Shown: piece after piece, positions 4,178 to 8,559 of the stretch
Layout: every line of letters starts with the position of its first letter
Position numbering within the stretch: position 1 is the first letter of the stretch
IMG/VR virus record: IMGVR_UViG_3300028298_000002
From: a virus
Lineage: Duplodnaviria; Heunggongvirae; Uroviricota; Caudoviricetes
Direction: 5' to 3' (one strand)
Length of the DNA stretch: 16,519 bases
Position numbers and translations under genes: made by a program
Notes under the pieces: model-generated
The model's input: the letters and a program-made list of their open reading frames with translations, nothing else
Database searches by the model: none
Told to the model about the DNA's origin: nothing

Positions 4178-4333
4178 ATGGCGATTAACCTGGCTTGTGA
4201 TAAAGAAAAGGAAAACAAATACATTGAATTTCTTCAAAAGCACAATCTAAAATCTGGTCCATCACCCGAATTTCTTGCATCACTCAACAAAGAACAACGG
4301 GTTGAACTTGCTAAGATTTTTCAACGGAAATAG
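4178..4333 (+). CDS. Small hypothetical protein (51 aa), absent from the ORF track
   Basis: MAINLACDKEKENKYIEFLQKHNLKSGPSPEFLASLNKEQRVELAKIFQRK*; its TAG abuts the 3' end of the convergent tRNA-Leu. Confidence 0.6.
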   Translation: MAINLACDKEKENKYIEFLQKHNLKSGPSPEFLASLNKEQRVELAKIFQRK

Positions 4334-4415
4334 TACAAATGGAGAGACTTGAACTCTCACGCCTTTCGGCACCAGATCCTAAGTCTGGCGTGTCTGCCAA
4401 TTCCACCACATTCGC
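4334..4415 (-). tRNA. tRNA-Leu(UAG), cassette 1
   Basis: GCGAATG/CATTTGT acceptor, CCAGA-CTTAGGA-TCTGG anticodon arm, long variable arm, TTCAAGT T loop; CCA not encoded. Confidence 0.95.
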
Positions 4416-4420
4416 ATAAG

Positions 4421-4506
4421 TGTCGGTAGCAGGAATCGAACCTGCACGGGCATTACTGCCCATAGCATTTTAAGTGCTACGTGTCTTCCAATTCCACCAT
4501 ACCGGC
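4421..4506 (-). tRNA. tRNA-Leu(UAA), cassette 1
   Basis: TAGCA-CTTAAAA-TGCTA anticodon arm, long variable arm; C2.A71 mismatch. Confidence 0.93.
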
Positions 4507-4511
4507 ATTTG

Positions 4512-4584
4512 TGGGACTACAAGGACTTGAACCTCGATTAGCGGTGTTACAGACCGAATACTTACCAATTAGTATGATAATCCC
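4512..4584 (-). tRNA. tRNA-Tyr(GUA) with a short variable loop, cassette 1
   Basis: GGGATTA/TAGTCCC acceptor, loop CTGTAAC, 4-nt variable loop, CGAGG-TTCAAGT-CCTTG T arm. Confidence 0.88.
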
Positions 4585-4589
4585 ATTAG

Positions 4590-4676
4590 AGGAAGATGAG
4601 CGATTCGAACGCTCGGATCCTTGTGAGATCGATAGTTTTCAAGACTATTCCAATAATCCATCTCTGGCAATCTTCC
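4590..4676 (-). tRNA. tRNA-Ser(UGA), cassette 1
   Basis: GGAAGAT/ATCTTCC acceptor, ATAGT-CTTGAAA-ACTAT anticodon arm, long variable arm. Confidence 0.93.
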
Positions 4677-4688
4677 TTATTTATTCAG

Positions 4689-4775
4689 CGGAAACGGCAG
4701 GATTCAAACCTGCGAAACCTTTTACAGTTTGGCTCGTTAGCAGTGAGCTGATATAATTCTCTCATCCACGTTTCC
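4689..4775 (-). tRNA. tRNA-Ser(GCU), cassette 1
   Basis: GGAAACG/CGTTTCC acceptor, loop CTGCTAA, long variable arm; T loop TTTGAAT (U56) with D-loop A19. Confidence 0.92.
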
Positions 4776-4785
4776 ATATTTAACG

Positions 4786-4861
4786 TGTGAAGTGTGGGCT
4801 ACGATCCCACGATCTCCTGTACCACAAACAGGCGCTTTCGACCAACTAAGCTAACTTCACC
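4786..4861 (-). tRNA. tRNA-His(GUG) including G-1, cassette 1
   Basis: CCTGT-TTGTGGT-ACAGG anticodon arm; encoded G-1 opposite A73; atypical T loop ATCGTAG. Confidence 0.88.
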
Positions 4862-4875
4862 ATGTAATAAAAAAC

Positions 4876-4908
4876 AAAAAACCCCGAACTTTTTATGGTT
4901 GAGGGCTT
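4876..4908 (-). terminator. Intrinsic terminator (attenuator) ahead of tRNA cassette 1
   Basis: AAGCCCTCAAC-cataaaaa-GTTCGGGGTT followed by TTTTGTTTTTT, about 15 nt before tRNA-His. Confidence 0.8.
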
Positions 4909-4933
4909 CTTGCGTGAGTAGTATCTTAATACA

Positions 4934-5002
4934 CTACAATAGAAATTTCCCCGAACCCAAAGGATACAGCGACAAATAACTATGTAATGATAAATTTTTC
5001 AT
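4934..5002 (-). CDS. Leader peptide 1 (22 aa) MKNLSLHSYLSLYPLGSGKFLL
   Basis: ATG lies 4 nt after the -7 promoter element; codons 4-13 are all Leu/Ser/His/Tyr, the amino acids of the downstream cassette. Confidence 0.85.
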   Translation of the reverse strand: MKNLSLHSYLSLYPLGSGKFLL

Positions 5003-5006
5003 AAGG

Positions 5007-5036
5007 CAAATGTAATTATTATTTTTGATTTAGCAA
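5007..5036 (-). promoter_or_regulatory. Bacteroidota sigma70 promoter P1
   Basis: TTG-N19-TACATTTG matches the -33/-7 (TAnnTTTG) consensus. Confidence 0.85.
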
Positions 5037-5263
5037 GTTTTTGTTATACGTAATGTAAAAAAAGGCACATATTATTTTAACATTTCTTTATTTATAGGCG
5101 TTTCGGTCATGTTACATAGAAAAACGATTTGTCCATTGGTCTATGAAAATATTATGCAATATTTATGAAATGAAAAAGAGGTTGTCAAGCATTGCGATGT
5201 TTTTGATCACAATTATTATTCAATATTTTGTGTTTTATTTTATTTACTATTTGTGTTTTTGAG

Positions 5264-5335
5264 TGTTTTCAACCCGAATCGAACGAGTATCTTCGAGTCC
5301 GTAGCCCGAAATTTTATCCTTTAAACTATGAAAAC
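5264..5335 (-). tRNA. tRNA-Arg(ACG), cassette 2
   Basis: GTTTTCA/TGAAAAC acceptor, TCGGG-CTACGGA-CTCGA anticodon arm, A20 identity base. Confidence 0.88.
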
Positions 5336-5341
5336 ATTGTG

Positions 5342-5413
5342 ATGGATAGAGCAGAGTCGAACTGCTATCTAGGGGTTAGAAAACCCTTGTTCTGTCCATT
5401 GAACTACAATCCA
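5342..5413 (-). tRNA. tRNA-Arg(UCU), cassette 2
   Basis: AGGG-TTTTCTAAC-CCCT centres on TCT; D loop GGA gives A20; U1-A72. Confidence 0.85.
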
Positions 5414-5417
5414 GTAG

Positions 5418-5491
5418 TGCAACCGCTGGAATTCGAATCCAGATAGCCCATATTAAAAGTATGGTGTATTACCAATTGATACTACGGTTGC
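5418..5491 (-). tRNA. tRNA-Lys(UUU), cassette 2
   Basis: GCAACCG/CGGTTGC acceptor, CCATA-CTTTTAA-TATGG anticodon arm. Confidence 0.92.
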
Positions 5492-5580
5492 ATAAATAAT
5501 TCATCTGCTTCTTCGCTTTCGCAAAAAAGAAAATGATTTTTTTATGTACCTAGTAACTGACATTTAATTTATTTTTTTAG

Positions 5581-5652
5581 TAACCCAAGCTTGAATCGGA
5601 CAAGCGACATCAACTATGTAAAAGTTGCGTTCTACCACTGAACTATTGGGTT
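5581..5652 (-). tRNA. tRNA-Val(UAC), cassette 2
   Basis: AACCCAA/TTGGGTT acceptor, CAACT-TTTACAT-AGTTG anticodon arm; T loop TCCGATT (C55). Confidence 0.88.
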
Positions 5653-5657
5653 ATATG

Positions 5658-5729
5658 TGGAGCGTAAGAATTTCGAAATCTTATAATCTTCGATGCAAAC
5701 GAAGTGCCTTGCCTTTCAGCCAACGCCCC
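5658..5729 (-). tRNA. tRNA-Ala(UGC), cassette 2
   Basis: GGGGCGT/ACGCTCC acceptor with the G3.U70 Ala determinant; CTTCG-TTTGCAT-CGAAG anticodon arm; U53.U61 mismatch. Confidence 0.88.
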
Positions 5730-5741
5730 AGTTTTTTCTAG

Positions 5742-5814
5742 TTGGTCCTAACCGAATCGAACGGATATATCCTATGTTATGAGCATAGTTCTTTACCAAT
5801 TAAGATAAGGACCA
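5742..5814 (-). tRNA. tRNA with CAU anticodon, probably Ile2 (lysidine) or elongator Met, cassette 2
   Basis: TGGTCCT/AGGACCA acceptor, CTATG-CTCATAA-CATAG anticodon arm; no initiator features. The Ile2 call is an inference. Confidence 0.8.
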
Positions 5815-5817
5815 GTG

Positions 5818-5879
5818 AGACCAGAAACATATTCCAGCTTTTGCAGAGCTGTGCCAAAGCCAATATTAGCTATCTGATC
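5818..5879 (-). tRNA. tRNA-Cys(GCA) lacking the T arm (62 nt; functional or pseudo)
   Basis: GATCAGA/TCTGGTC 7-bp acceptor, U73, intact D arm, CAGCT-CTGCAAA-AGCTG anticodon arm; only 9 nt (GAATATGTT) replace the variable loop plus T arm. Confidence 0.7.
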
Positions 5880-5887
5880 GATCATTG

Positions 5888-5959
5888 AGCAAAATATCGG
5901 TCTCGAACCGCATCCTCAGATTGGAAATCTGACGCTTTACCAATTAAGCTATATCTTGC
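5888..5959 (-). tRNA. tRNA-Gly(UCC) with an apparent 8/4 acceptor/T-stem fold, cassette 2
   Basis: GCAAGATA/TATTTTGC 8 bp, TCAGA-TTTCCAA-TCTGA anticodon arm, GCGG-TTCGAGA-CCGA T arm, U73. Confidence 0.85.
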
Positions 5960-5966
5960 AAACTTG

Positions 5967-6039
5967 TACTCCGTAGGGGATTCAAACCCCTGTTCTTCTC
6001 AGTGAAAGTGAGACGACTTAATCGCTTGTCCAACGGAGC
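5967..6039 (-). tRNA. tRNA-Glu(UUC), cassette 2
   Basis: GCTCCGT/ACGGAGT acceptor, TCTCA-CTTTCAC-TGAGA anticodon arm; D loop CGA (A19) with T loop TTTGAAT (U56). Confidence 0.9.
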
Positions 6040-6130
6040 ATTGTTCCGCTGGTTCGTCTGATTTTGTGTTTAATGTTTTCATCACTTGTTTTTTGTTTCT
6101 TTTTTGTATAAATTGCTTGTTTTTTTTCGC

Positions 6131-6195
6131 TTAGTGGCGGGAGTGCAACTCATTTCGCCTAACGGCTAATCTACTCTGCACTTTGCCACCACTAA
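6131..6195 (-). ncRNA. Unidentified tRNA-sized hairpin RNA within cassette 2
   Basis: TTAGTGGTGG/CCGCCACTAA (10 bp, with a G.U that pairs only on the minus strand), AGTGCA/TGCACT, and apical GCC-GTTA-GGC. Confidence 0.4.
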
Positions 6196-6264
6196 TATTT
6201 TAAGCAACAACGGACTTTTCCTACATTTTTACAAACAAGGCTTTGACCTATTGTTGTTGCTTTG

Positions 6265-6337
6265 CACACCGACCTCGATTTGAACGAAGATTATCAGGGT
6301 TGGAATCTGATCGCATTGCCATTTAACTCATCGGTGC
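6265..6337 (-). tRNA. tRNA-Trp(CCA), cassette 2
   Basis: GCACCGA/TCGGTGT acceptor, loop TTCCAAC, CTTCG-TTCAAAT-CGAGG T arm; weak D stem. Confidence 0.82.
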
Positions 6338-6347
6338 GTATTTTAAG

Positions 6348-6424
6348 CGGTTTATTTCGGATTCGAACCGAACGAATATCTCGCGTGACAGGCGAGCGAA
6401 CACAGCCAAGCATTCCCATAAACC
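6348..6424 (-). tRNA. tRNA-Asp(GUC), cassette 2
   Basis: GGTTTAT/ATAAACC acceptor, G73, CTCGC-CTGTCAC-GCGAG anticodon arm; G at position 8 and a 7-nt variable region. Confidence 0.87.
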
Positions 6425-6513
6425 AAAATAGAGGAAAGCCTTAAACCTCATTTTTGCAAGTTGGATCTTGCCAATCTAACGCCCTTGTTTCAGGGCCGAA
6501 CTTTTTATTGCTG

Positions 6514-6588
6514 CTCCCATTGCTAGACTTGAACTAGCGACCTTCAGATTAACAATCTGCTGCTACTAACCAGCTGAGCTAAACGGGA
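6514..6588 (-). tRNA. tRNA-Asn(GUU), cassette 2
   Basis: TCCCGTT/AATGGGA acceptor, G73, loop TTGTTAA, canonical D and T arms. Confidence 0.93.
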
Positions 6589-6598
6589 TTGTTGATTG

Positions 6599-6671
6599 TT
6601 GTTTCGGGGTGAATCGAACACCCGACATTTATCTTATCAGGATACTATTCTGCCAACTGAATTACGAAACA
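6599..6671 (-). tRNA. tRNA-Ile(GAU), cassette 2
   Basis: TGTTTCG/CGAAACA acceptor, TATC-CTGATAA-GATA anticodon arm, GGGTG-TTCGATT-CACCC T arm. Confidence 0.9.
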
Positions 6672-6885
6672 ATAAAAAAAGAGTCAGCTATTTTGCCTTC
6701 ATAAGCTGATTTCCCCAGTGGCTGCCAGGTATTCTAAAAGTGCATTTACGGGTTAATTAAACCTTCATTCCTAAAAATTTCGTTATGTTTTCTTTCGTAC
6801 TAAAATCAACATTTAACTAATTTTTTTCTAACGCTGTTGTCGTTTCAAACAGGACTTTCAGTAACTCTTTATTCAAAGAACGTAA

Positions 6886-6960
6886 TGGTTGCGAGGACCG
6901 GAATCGAACCGGTGTGGGCAACAGCTTATGAGACTGGCGGGAACCAACATCCTCCTCGCA
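6886..6960 (-). tRNA. tRNA-Met(CAU) with an atypical D arm and encoded CCA, cassette 2
   Basis: TGCGAGG/CCTCGCA-A-CCA, loop CTCATAA, ACCGG-TTCGATT-CCGGT T arm; G2-C71/C3-G70 are Met-like; no U8. It is the only tRNA in the array with encoded CCA. Confidence 0.8.
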
Positions 6961-6973
6961 ATATTTTTTTTTG

Positions 6974-7056
6974 AGCCTAAAGAGAGATTTGAACTCCCGT
7001 GTGGTTTCCCATCCAGATTACAAATCTGGCGCAATCGGCCGCTATGCGATTTAGGC
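6974..7056 (-). tRNA. tRNA-Thr(UGU) with a long variable arm, cassette 2
   Basis: GCCTAAA/TTTAGGC acceptor (C2-G71), CCAGA-TTTGTAA-TCTGG anticodon arm, 14-nt variable arm with TGG-GAAA-CCA. Confidence 0.88.
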
Positions 7057-7061
7057 AATGT

Positions 7062-7150
7062 TTCGAGAAATGGCTGGGCTATTTTGTTTCATTGTCCCAA
7101 CCAATCATTCGCCACCAGGATTTTCCTACCCGATAGCAACCTATCTCAAA
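7062..7150 (-). ncRNA. Unidentified structured RNA of about 90 nt at the head of cassette 2
   Basis: Closing stem TTTGAGA/TCTCGAA encloses two hairpins (TTGCTATCGGG/CCTGGTGGCGA and TGGTTGGG/CCCAGCCA). Confidence 0.4.
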
Positions 7151-7185
7151 GTGTTAAATAAAAAAAAGAACTTAATTTTAGTCAT

Positions 7186-7216
7186 AAAAAAACCCCGACT
7201 TATTTGGTCGAGGCTT
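7186..7216 (-). terminator. Intrinsic terminator (attenuator) ahead of tRNA cassette 2
   Basis: AAGCCTCGAC-caaataa-GTCGGGGTT followed by TTTT. Confidence 0.85.
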
Positions 7217-7238
7217 CGTAGGTTTAATGTAGATGTTT

Positions 7239-7358
7239 TTAACATCGAACACAATCGTCCAAAGCCTCATTAGTCTTGTCTCCGCCCTCAATACGTACAG
7301 CGACAGACCAATTGGTTCTCGTTGCACACGCCATTATAATATTTTTTACTTGTTTCAT
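7239..7358 (-). CDS. Leader peptide 2 (39 aa) MKQVKNIIMACATRTNWSVAVRIEGGDKTNEALDDCVRC
   Basis: A-rich context before the ATG; contains all 13 amino acids of cassette 2 and only three residues outside that set (Q3, S18, L33). Confidence 0.85.
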   Translation of the reverse strand: MKQVKNIIMACATRTNWSVAVRIEGGDKTNEALDDCVRC

Positions 7359-7452
7359 TGAATGCGTTAATTTTTTTTAGTTAAAAAAGGCTGTCCAAAT
7401 TTTTATCCTACGTTTCCGCTGTCCAGAATATTATTCTGCCTTTTTGACTTTG

Positions 7453-7485
7453 CAAATATAGAATGGTTTTTTTTATATTTCCAAA
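7453..7485 (-). promoter_or_regulatory. Bacteroidota sigma70 promoter P2
   Basis: TTTG-N21-TATATTTG. Confidence 0.8.
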
Positions 7486-7597
7486 TTTATTTTTTGTTTT
7501 TCATTTAACTAATTTAAAATCAGTTAAATAAAATTCGGCACTTTCGTAAAATATACAACAAAATGGGAATTTTATTACAATAAAAATCTAAAAATAG

Positions 7598-7668
7598 TTT
7601 CAGGAGAAAGATTCGAACTTCCGTTTGAGAGACCAAAACTCCCCGTCCTGCCGCTAGACGATCCTGAA
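7598..7668 (-). tRNA. tRNA-Gln(UUG), cassette 3
   Basis: TTCAGGA/TCCTGAA acceptor (U1-A72), GGGAG-TTTTGGT-CTCTC anticodon arm. Confidence 0.9.
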
Positions 7669-7679
7669 TTGTGTGTGTG

Positions 7680-7751
7680 TGTGATCGACAAGATTTGAAC
7701 TTGTGTCCCCGCCTCTTCAGGGCGATGCTAGGCCAACTCAGCTACGACCAC
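7680..7751 (-). tRNA. tRNA-Phe(GAA), cassette 3
   Basis: GTGGTCG/CGATCAC acceptor, TCGCC-CTGAAGA-GGCGG anticodon arm. Confidence 0.9.
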
Positions 7752-7761
7752 ATTAATTTTG

Positions 7762-7837
7762 TAGCGATGGCCAGATTTCAACTGGCGCTTCCCTGGTCCC
7801 AAACCAGGTCGGAAAAAGCAGACTTCCGTACATCGCT
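7762..7837 (-). tRNA. tRNA-Pro(UGG), cassette 3
   Basis: AGCGATG/CATCGCT acceptor, CCTGG-TTTGGGA-CCAGG anticodon arm; D loop TGCT (C19) with T loop TTGAAAT (G56). Confidence 0.88.
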
Positions 7838-7846
7838 ATGTAAAAC

Positions 7847-7877
7847 AAAAAACCCCAACATTTCTGCTGAGGTTTTT
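7847..7877 (-). terminator. Intrinsic terminator (attenuator) ahead of tRNA cassette 3
   Basis: AAAAACCTCAGC-agaaat-GTTGGGGTTTTT followed by TGTTTT, about 10 nt before tRNA-Pro. Confidence 0.85.
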
Positions 7878-7897
7878 CGTAGTAGTGTTTTAAATTT

Positions 7898-7966
7898 TTA
7901 ACATAACGATTCCAGAGCAAGAAGTTGCTTAAAAAACTGCGGCTGAAATTGTGTTTTGTTTTTCAT
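7898..7966 (-). CDS. Leader peptide 3 (22 aa) MKNKTQFQPQFFKQLLALESLC
   Basis: ATG lies 8 nt after the -7 element; codons 6-12 CAA TTT CAG CCG CAG TTT TTT are all Gln/Phe/Pro, the amino acids of the downstream cassette. Confidence 0.85.
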   Translation of the reverse strand: MKNKTQFQPQFFKQLLALESLC

Positions 7967-7974
7967 TTGGACTG

Positions 7975-8005
7975 CAATGATAGTGCAATTTTTTGAATCT
8001 GCAAA
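7975..8005 (-). promoter_or_regulatory. Bacteroidota sigma70 promoter P3
   Basis: TTTG-N19-TATCATTG (one mismatch to TAnnTTTG). Confidence 0.72.
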
Positions 8006-8014
8006 TTTATTTTG

Positions 8015-8049
8015 AAAAAAAAAGCAAAAGCCCAATAAAAATTGGGCTT
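8015..8049 (-). terminator. Intrinsic terminator after the VRR-NUC gene, insulating the tRNA array
   Basis: AAGCCCAAT-tttt-ATTGGGCTT followed by TTGCTTTTTTT. Confidence 0.75.
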
Positions 8050-8109
8050 CGCAAGTGAAATTAATTTTAGATTGGTCTCCTACGTTTATTTCGGTGCTAA
8101 GATATGAAT

Positions 8110-8475
8110 TTATTTTCCAATATCAAATCCTGAATGGATCTCGTTAATAATTTCTTGGAATTGTTCGAAGGACCGGCAGATATAAACTTTAATTCCATTT
8201 GCTTCCCAGATTGCGTGGATCTTTTTTTGTTCAGGTGAAACTACACCTGTTTCTGTTTTCATTTCTATGCCGATAGGAATAACTGAACAAACACCTGGCT
8301 TGTATAAATACAGAATGTCGCAGATTCCTGAAACGCAGCCCGTTGCTTTGAGCTTAGTCGCTTCAATCTTATTTCGGTATCCACCATTCGGAACGGAAAA
8401 TAAAAGTCCCCTACGTTCCGGAAAGGTATTGTGAAACCATTGATAGCATTTTGCCTGAATCTGATCTTCGCTCAT
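8110..8475 (-). CDS. VRR-NUC domain (PD-(D/E)xK) nuclease
   Basis: SEDQIQ...LLFSVPNGG.R...G..SGICD...IEMKT..G..SPEQ pattern. Confidence 0.88.
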   Translation of the reverse strand: MSEDQIQAKCYQWFHNTFPERRGLLFSVPNGGYRNKIEATKLKATGCVSGICDILYLYKPGVCSVIPIGIEMKTETGVVSPEQKKIHAIWEANGIKVYICRSFEQFQEIINEIHSGFDIGK

Positions 8476-8559
8476 TCCTCAAAAGTAGGGAAAATTATCC
8501 GAAGCAAAACTCTAAAGTTTAAAGATTAATCAAAGCCTTTATTTTCAATACTTTTAGAA

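Follow-up and report, generated by a model that had tools for sequence, protein, structure and literature searches.

The window analyzed here, a stretch of 16,519 nucleotides (nt) from the Caudoviricetes virus record IMGVR_UViG_3300028298_000002 of IMG/VR, carries an array of transfer RNA (tRNA) genes divided into three cassettes, each of which is preceded by a short open reading frame (ORF) and a predicted terminator hairpin. Twenty-two tRNA genes, all on the minus strand between positions 4333 and 7837, were called by ARAGORN, and tRNA-Tyr(GUA) at 4511-4584 was added by Rfam and a relaxed ARAGORN run, bringing the canonical set to 23 genes. Read along the minus strand, the same order is encountered three times, namely, promoter motif, short ORF (hereinafter leader), intrinsic terminator, and tRNA cassette (Table 1). 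A first-pass annotation of the window had proposed three minus-strand units of this kind, and the ORF, motif, folding, and tRNA calls bear it out; the presence of three units with codon-matched leaders, terminators, and tRNA cassettes is confirmed. The modules are self-contained and compact, at ~150 to 300 nt each.

The source phage is uncultured. Lake-water metagenomes contain DNA nearly identical to the window, and four DNA runs yielded identical low-depth fragments of the same phage, with no added variants. When GenBank phages were compared at the DNA level, they matched single tRNAs only. By contrast, syntenic arrays were recovered from six relatives (L027, L028/L029, L030/L031, L130, L132, and L059/L127). 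Five of these came from Logan/ENA contigs through close homologs of the VRR-NUC protein encoded next to the array (8110-8475), and the sixth, a groundwater contig, through the pattern of leader 2. It should be noted that the comparison with L059 covers modules 2 and 3 and part of cassette 2.

For a phage of ~80 kb, the tRNA set is a minimal full decoder, in which each four-codon box is served by a single U34 tRNA (A34 for Arg CGN), Cys being the exception. Two tRNAs with a CAU anticodon are part of the set, and a leader with consecutive ATT-ATA-ATG is also present. Neither ARAGORN nor Rfam called a canonical tRNA-Cys in the window. What is found in cassette 2 is a remnant homologous to the intact tRNA-Cys of L027, in which the acceptor, D, and anticodon arms are intact and ~9 nt stand in place of the T arm. 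In L028 and L030, the same position is occupied by a tRNA-Cys of unrelated sequence. The first-pass annotation had the 20 amino acids partitioned among the cassettes as 4 + 13 + 3; this division stands for the 19 amino acids with intact tRNAs and fails for Cys, the tRNA of which is defective through the loss of its T arm.

Table 1 Features of the three tRNA modules in window coordinates, listed in the direction of the minus strand. ΔG, predicted folding free energy in kcal/mol
Feature	Coordinates	Strand	Details
Promoter P3	7975..8004	-	TTG-19 nt-TATCATTG; -7 box and leader ATG 8 nt apart; kept in L027, L028, L030, and L059
Leader 3 ORF	7966..7898	-	22 codons + stop, MKNKTQFQPQFFKQLLALESLC; sensor run QFQPQFF at 7931-7951
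Module 3 region 2	7911..7924	-	pairs with the 5′ arm of terminator 3
Terminator 3	7847..7873	-	9-bp hairpin (ΔG -11.5) + T6; ~9 nt before tRNA-Pro
Cassette 3	7597..7837	-	tRNA-Pro(UGG), Phe(GAA), Gln(UUG); ARAGORN, Rfam
Promoter P2	7453..7485	-	TTTG-21 nt-TATATTTG, strict match; precedes the leader 2 start codon by ~94 nt, against 28 nt in relatives
Leader 2 ORF	7358..7239	-	39 codons + stop, MKQVKNIIMACATRTNWSVAVRIEGGDKTNEALDDCVRC; all 13 cassette 2 amino acids present
Module 2 antiterminator, 5′ strand	7259..7269	-	GAGGCUUUG (codons 31-33); pairs with CGAAGCCUC at 7210-7218, overlapping the 5′ arm of terminator 2
Terminator 2	7186..7214	-	8-bp hairpin (ΔG -10.9) + T7
Spacer, terminator 2 to tRNA-Thr	7062..7150	-	conserved, structured, ~90 nt; predicted closing stem + two hairpins
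Mini-ORF MIGWDNETK	7079..7108	-	9 codons, in the 7062-7150 spacer
Cassette 2	5263..7056	-	Thr, CAU, Ile, Asn, Asp, Trp, Glu, Gly, [Cys remnant], CAU, Ala, Val, Lys, Arg(UCU), Arg(ACG)
Structured spacer, Met-Ile	6672-6885	-	within cassette 2
Structured spacer, Trp-Glu	6040-6263	-	within cassette 2
tRNA-Cys(GCA) remnant	5818..5879	-	T arm deleted; homologous to the intact tRNA-Cys of L027
Promoter P1	5007..5036	-	TTG-19 nt-TACATTTG; -7 box and ATG 4 nt apart
Leader 1 ORF	5002..4934	-	22 codons + stop, MKNLSLHSYLSLYPLGSGKFLL; sensor run LSLHSYLSLY at 4964-4993
Module 1 region 2	4948..4958	-	GGGUUCGGGGA, near copy of the terminator 3′ arm; pairs with the 5′ arm
Terminator 1	4876..4906	-	hairpin with one C-C mismatch (ΔG -7.4) + T6; stems of relatives free of mismatches
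Cassette 1	4333..4860	-	His(GUG), Ser(GCU), Ser(UGA), Tyr(GUA), Leu(UAA), Leu(UAG); ARAGORN, Rfam

Each leader is built from the amino acids of the cassette that follows it, as the first-pass annotation had claimed. Chance expectations were derived from the amino acid usage of the 17 long ORFs of the window, in which H/S/Y/L account for a fraction of 0.203, the 13 amino acids of cassette 2 for 0.667, and P/F/Q for 0.130. Against this background, the uninterrupted run of 10 H/S/Y/L residues among the 21 residues of leader 1 has p < 1.4e-6 and the run of seven P/F/Q residues in leader 3 has p < 9.4e-6, and the 13-amino-acid set of cassette 2 makes up 35 of 38 residues of leader 2 (p = 2.6e-4, or 3e-5 if the presence of all 13 is also required). 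For the latter leader, the presence of all 13 amino acids holds as annotated, and the count originally given as 36 of 39 becomes 35 of 38. Among the six possible assignments of leaders to cassettes, the true one scores best, with a summed -log10 p of 11.3 compared with at most 5.3 for the other five. Consistently, in the 4,405 small ORFs of the compared DNA, P/F/Q runs of at least six residues occur only in these leaders, and three of the four H/S/Y/L runs of at least 10 residues belong to them as well. By standard wobble, all ten sensor codons of leader 1 can be decoded by the six tRNAs of cassette 1, including both Leu and both Ser isoacceptors.

The leaders are kept in all of the relatives, where the retained cores are QFQPQF (PFQPQF in L030), MKNLSLHSYLSLY, and CATRTNWS...R...G, and leader 3 is conserved in seven genomes. 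The pattern of substitutions indicates, as far as sequence comparison can, that the leaders are translated. Indels within them are all multiples of three (12, 3, 3, and 3 nt), which does not hold for the flanking DNA; changes in leader 2 are distributed over the three codon positions as 4/3/14, with 10 synonymous versus 8 nonsynonymous; and replacements within the cassette's own amino acid set predominate, as in the case of Q to P in leader 3 of L030 or V to I, D to N, A to G, and T to I in leader 2. Furthermore, leader 3 of the diverged L059 reads FFSFQPQFPQ through different synonymous codons.

These signatures bear directly on the notion that the ORFs are incidental to an untranslated RNA element, that is, a 5′ leader RNA or a small RNA serving, for example, as a signal for tRNA-precursor processing or stability. 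Such an element would fit the very high nucleotide conservation of some parts, best exemplified by 23 nt of leader 2 that are identical in six genomes, as well as the lack of a readable ribosome-binding signal, Shine-Dalgarno sites being absent from most Bacteroidota genes. However, an untranslated element would account neither for the in-frame indels, the third-position bias, and the frequent synonymous changes, nor for the retention of the amino acid set in L059 with different codons, nor for a match to the cassettes that has a very low probability of arising by chance. We consider it very unlikely.

If translated, the ORFs could instead be independent micro-genes that encode functional small peptides and possess their own terminators, with the tRNAs being expressed by constitutive leak-through or from unrecognized promoters. 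Indeed, the ORFs are conserved, start with MK, and are preceded by promoters resembling those of ordinary genes, and CATRTNWS, the most conserved stretch of leader 2, is present even in L059. However, the N-terminal lengths of the leaders differ by 4 codons among the relatives, and in L132 a frameshift affects the post-sensor, C-terminal half of leader 3, although the nucleotides of this part, which make up the segment designated region 2 below, are kept. The latter observation argues for a role as RNA of the post-sensor part and a role as codons of the sensor, and speaks against a functional peptide. The amino acid make-up of the leaders, matched to their own cassettes, would also be left unexplained if the peptides themselves were the product.

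The promoter motif searched for was of the Bacteroidota type (TTG, 17-22 nt, TAnnTTTG), and the matches upstream of each leader are conserved in the relatives. The array region contains only one other match on the tRNA strand, a non-strict one located inside the Gly and Cys genes (5861-5892). Because the whole window shows no enrichment of strict motifs (3 versus 1.3 expected), the assignment of promoters rests on their position and conservation rather than on their number. In Flavobacterium, the -7 box spans positions -12 to -5 (PMC9723704), so that, judging from the placement of the P1 box, the transcript is predicted to be leaderless. This spacing is shared by the VRR-NUC gene, which has a strict Bacteroidota promoter (8480-8508, minus strand) with a -7 box ending 4 nt before the ATG at 8475, and is likewise predicted to yield a leaderless mRNA; the 4-nt spacing recurs in the orthologs from L027 and L028. 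Thus, such an arrangement appears to be used by real genes of this phage.

The terminators were recognized by folding as G+C-rich hairpins with predicted ΔG values of -7.4 to -11.5 kcal/mol, followed by runs of 6-7 T; a simple terminator scanner missed all three hairpins, which contain G-U pairs or a mismatch. In L030, terminator 1 displays a compensatory change from C-G to U-A. The first tRNA gene of modules 1 and 3 begins just 9 to 15 nt beyond the T run, and no promoter motif is present in this interval, which implies that these tRNAs would be reachable only by read-through of the hairpin. This spacing also speaks against independent micro-genes, as it leaves no room for a separate promoter of the tRNAs in these two modules.

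The first-pass annotation had also claimed that each leader contains a segment complementary to the 5′ arm of its terminator. Such a segment (region 2) is present in all three modules, albeit weak in module 3 of the window. When compared with 1,000 shuffled sequences, the predicted duplex between region 2 and the arm has p <= 0.03 in all copies of modules 1 and 3 except that of module 3 in the window. For module 1, ΔG is -11.8 in the window (p = 0.03) and -15.4 to -16.3 in the relatives (p <= 0.001); for module 3, the respective values are -7.9 (p = 0.086) and -10.9 to -14.6 (p between 0.000 and 0.019). The predicted antiterminator of module 2 involves, in addition to codons 31-33, a second contact between UUGGUC (7305-7313) and GACCAA, and in L059 one of its pairs is compensated, from G-C to U-A. 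The most telling case is module 3 of L059, where the sequence of terminator 3 is unrelated (AGCCCAUAAG...CUUGUGGGUU) and the 3′ end of leader 3, UUAUGGGCU, is perfectly complementary to this new 5′ arm (ΔG -14.6; 0 of 1,000 shuffles). This co-variation of leader and terminator is the strongest single result. Neither the co-variation nor the complementarity between the 3′ part of the ORF and the terminator arm would be expected of micro-genes, which we regard as hardly credible overall.

To approximate folding during transcription, we modeled the RNA as it exists before the 3′ arm of the terminator is synthesized and masked the bases covered by a ribosome. With the ribosome stalled on the sensor codons, the 5′ arm is predicted to pair with region 2 (in module 2, with the two antiterminator strands), so that 5 to 12 bases of the arm are engaged; with the ribosome at the stop codon, the arm is predicted to be free. 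In the ribosome-free fold, an intra-leader hairpin frees the arm in modules 1 and 3 of most contigs, but not in those of the window itself. In the model, the masked folds reproduce the three-state logic of the trp attenuator. The earlier suggestion that ribosome stalling selects the antiterminator thus finds support in these modeled folds and in the co-variation seen in L059.

Collectively, these observations suggest, with a probability that we put at about 0.8, that the three units are ribosome-mediated (leader-peptide) transcription attenuators, each gating one phage tRNA cassette. In this scheme, host RNA polymerase would start at the Bacteroidota-type promoter, of which the motif is observed, and a ribosome would translate the short leader, as the coding signatures imply. 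As long as charged tRNAs are plentiful for all sensor codons, the ribosome would reach the stop codon and cover region 2, allowing the terminator hairpin to form and transcription to end a few bases before the first tRNA gene. If any of the sensor tRNAs became scarce, the ribosome would stall on the sensor run and region 2 would stay free to form the antiterminator with the 5′ arm of the terminator, letting the polymerase read into the cassette. The newly made tRNAs would relieve the stall, such that each module would act as a negative-feedback switch that supplies its own subset of tRNAs on demand. Without a ribosome, the intra-leader hairpin predicted in most relatives would sequester region 2, making termination the default. 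Every sequence-level prediction of attenuation that we examined is supported, and from these features we infer translation of the leaders, the efficiency of termination, and the response in vivo.

The same folds could, however, serve a more general sensor of translation status, in which the attenuators report the overall speed of the ribosome or the coupling of transcription and translation, for example, after host shut-off, and the match of codons is of minor importance. The three-state folding depends only on the position of the ribosome; leader 2, which samples 13 amino acids, would be an almost general probe; and L027 and L028 keep leader codons for tRNAs that are missing from their arrays. 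Nevertheless, the sensor runs of leaders 1 and 3 consist purely of amino acids of their own cassettes (p ~1e-6 and 1e-5), which is unneeded for sensing speed, and this composition survives both nucleotide divergence, as in L059, and replacements within the set. We therefore deem a general sensor improbable, though less so than the untranslated RNA or the micro-genes.

Several points weigh against codon-specific attenuation of all three cassettes. The family is small and its members are closely related, so that independent substitutions are few. In the window itself, the antiterminator of module 3 is weak (-7.9, p = 0.086) and terminator 1 is mismatched (-7.4). In module 2, the duplex with the terminator arm alone is not significant (p of 0.05 to 0.29), the antiterminator lying mostly just 5′ of the arm. 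When the full-length RNA is folded, the terminator is the most stable structure in modules 1 and 3, and the antiterminator prevails only in the co-transcriptional snapshots; the model hence depends on co-transcriptional kinetics, as do classical attenuators. A terminator-like hairpin before tRNA-Ile and the long structured spacers of cassette 2 raise the further issue that this cassette may be more complex than a single unit and that control by leader 2 may miss some of its 15 genes. Finally, the correspondence between leader and cassette is imperfect among the relatives. The first-pass annotation had proposed to examine whether leader composition co-varies with cassette content, and this is only partially the case. 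In the part of cassette 2 seen in L059, tRNA-Asp and tRNA-Glu are absent, and leader 2 of this genome has no Asp codon and one Glu codon. On the other hand, cassette 2 of L027 and L028 has lost the second Met-type (CAU) tRNA as well as the Ala, Val, Lys, and both Arg tRNAs, whereas leader 2 keeps their codons, and leader 2 of L059 contains 7 residues that are either outside the 13-amino-acid set or, in the case of Glu, without a tRNA in the part of the cassette seen.

The arrangement does not seem to be a general property of phage tRNA arrays. An equivalent scan for upstream ORFs in the unrelated tRNA arrays of LR756502.1 (8 cassettes) and crAss001 (7 cassettes) gave best p values of at least 0.02 and no convincing leader-terminator unit, which indicates that the statistic is not trivially satisfied and that the arrangement is not universal among such arrays. 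Searches of IMG/VR with three DNA patterns, each modeled on a leader or a terminator, returned nothing related, and the pattern MK...FQPQF had 75 chance matches there, none of them followed by tRNAs. VRR-NUC relatives in IMG/VR, at no more than 52% identity, were without arrays, as were the more distant VRR-NUC relatives in Logan and ENA, where no array adjoins the gene; the gene on the other flank led to no useful relatives in IMG/VR. None of the Rfam leader families searched (Trp_leader, His_leader, Leu_leader, Thr_leader, and Phe_leader) matched the window at the gathering score, the only leader match with E <= 5 being one to Phe_leader on the opposite strand (7942-8056; 28.6 bits against a gathering score of 55). 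The covariance model of the T-box riboswitch (RF00230) did not match the window either, and no cis-regulatory family of Rfam was found on the correct strand.

Module 2 has additional features. The spacer between terminator 2 and tRNA-Thr contains a mini-ORF, MIGWDNETK, residues 1-8 of which comprise precisely the amino acids carried by the first eight tRNAs in cassette 2. An eight-residue permutation of this kind is unique among the 45,256 ATG-started 8-mers in the 1.86 Mb of compared DNA. In the relatives, the last residue of the mini-ORF is Q in L027, the array of which is without tRNA-Lys, and in L132, where cassette 2 lies off the contig; the L028 copy has lost its stop codon. The spacer is possibly a second checkpoint. 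Directly before tRNA-Ile, a small hairpin followed by CTCTTTTTTT (6674-6709, minus strand) is conserved in the window, L027, L028, and L030 and may represent a further internal terminator or a processing signal. The two longer structured spacers, which match no Rfam family, contain conserved stem-loops, such as AGCAACAAC...GUUGUUGCU and AGUGGUGG...CCCGCCACU, and the Met-to-Ile spacer of L027, L028, and L030 includes an extra tRNA-like stretch of ~130 nt that is absent from the window.

In the relatives, ORFs, some of them endonuclease-like, are inserted between the cassettes (L059, 1379-2374, plus strand; L132, 1506-2063; L027, 6541-7657). The content of the cassettes varies between genomes, yet the promoter-leader-terminator units stay joined to their cassettes, and the arrays appear to be recombination hot spots assembled from intact modules. 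In L030, tRNA-Lys and the two tRNA-Arg genes are separated by an inserted gene for a 175-residue protein with a helix-turn-helix domain (7209-7801). An Arg-rich mini-ORF, MKKTRNIKYSSAIRRSRRSR, comes next and stops 6 nt short of tRNA-Arg(UCU), with no terminator in between; it could be a chance occurrence or a makeshift sensor.

In mechanism, the closest counterparts of the phage units are the enterobacterial leaders (ilvGMEDA, ilvBN, trpL, hisL, leuL, thrL, and pheL), which share with them a promoter-proximal ORF, regulatory codons, a terminator, and an antiterminator chosen by the ribosome; the ilv and thr leaders, which sense several amino acids at once, are the nearest. The phage units differ from these in that their targets are tRNA genes rather than biosynthetic enzymes, that every sensor corresponds to the amino acids of an entire cassette (3, 4, or 13 of them), and that they have a Bacteroidota-type host, predicted leaderless or near-leaderless mRNAs, and no similarity to the Rfam leader families. 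In purpose, the nearest known systems are the pheST attenuator and the T-boxes. In the former, with its pheM leader in E. coli, the supply of charged tRNA also controls a gene of the translation apparatus through a leader peptide. However, the target there is an aminoacyl-tRNA synthetase and a single amino acid is sensed, such that, unlike in the phage units, tRNA supply does not feed back directly on tRNA synthesis. T-box riboswitches (RF00230) likewise let tRNA charging decide between terminator and antiterminator in front of genes concerned with the same amino acid, but they bind the uncharged tRNA directly, without an ORF or a ribosome, and act on synthetase, transporter, and biosynthesis genes. 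In Flavobacterium psychrophilum, strong clues to attenuation by leader peptides have been reported upstream of amino acid operons (PMC9723704); these signals come from the presumed host phylum and have the same promoter type, but their targets are host biosynthetic operons, not tRNA genes. A full-text search of the literature turned up no account of tRNA genes controlled by a leader peptide.

Phage tRNA genes are usually seen as constitutive helpers in codon usage or as spares against tRNA-cleaving defenses. We tentatively entertain the broader idea, which we think is more likely wrong than right, that the modules together form a demand-driven circuit of tRNA supply covering the whole code and act as a counter-defense sensor against anticodon nucleases, with MIGWDNETK as a second checkpoint. 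In that event, the depletion of certain tRNAs would stall ribosomes on the matching leader and turn on only the replacement cassette, which would be switched off again once decoding recovers; that offsetting tRNA-cleaving defenses is the purpose of the modules is speculation. If codon-matched attenuation itself holds true, each module would be a compact natural sensor of tRNA availability for a group of amino acids, usable as a reporter of translational stress or of anticodon nuclease activity. The phage would gauge the decoding speed of defined codon sets and transcribe the matching tRNAs when needed, with built-in negative feedback, and trp-type attenuation would reach beyond metabolism and also govern how the decoding machinery itself is supplied.

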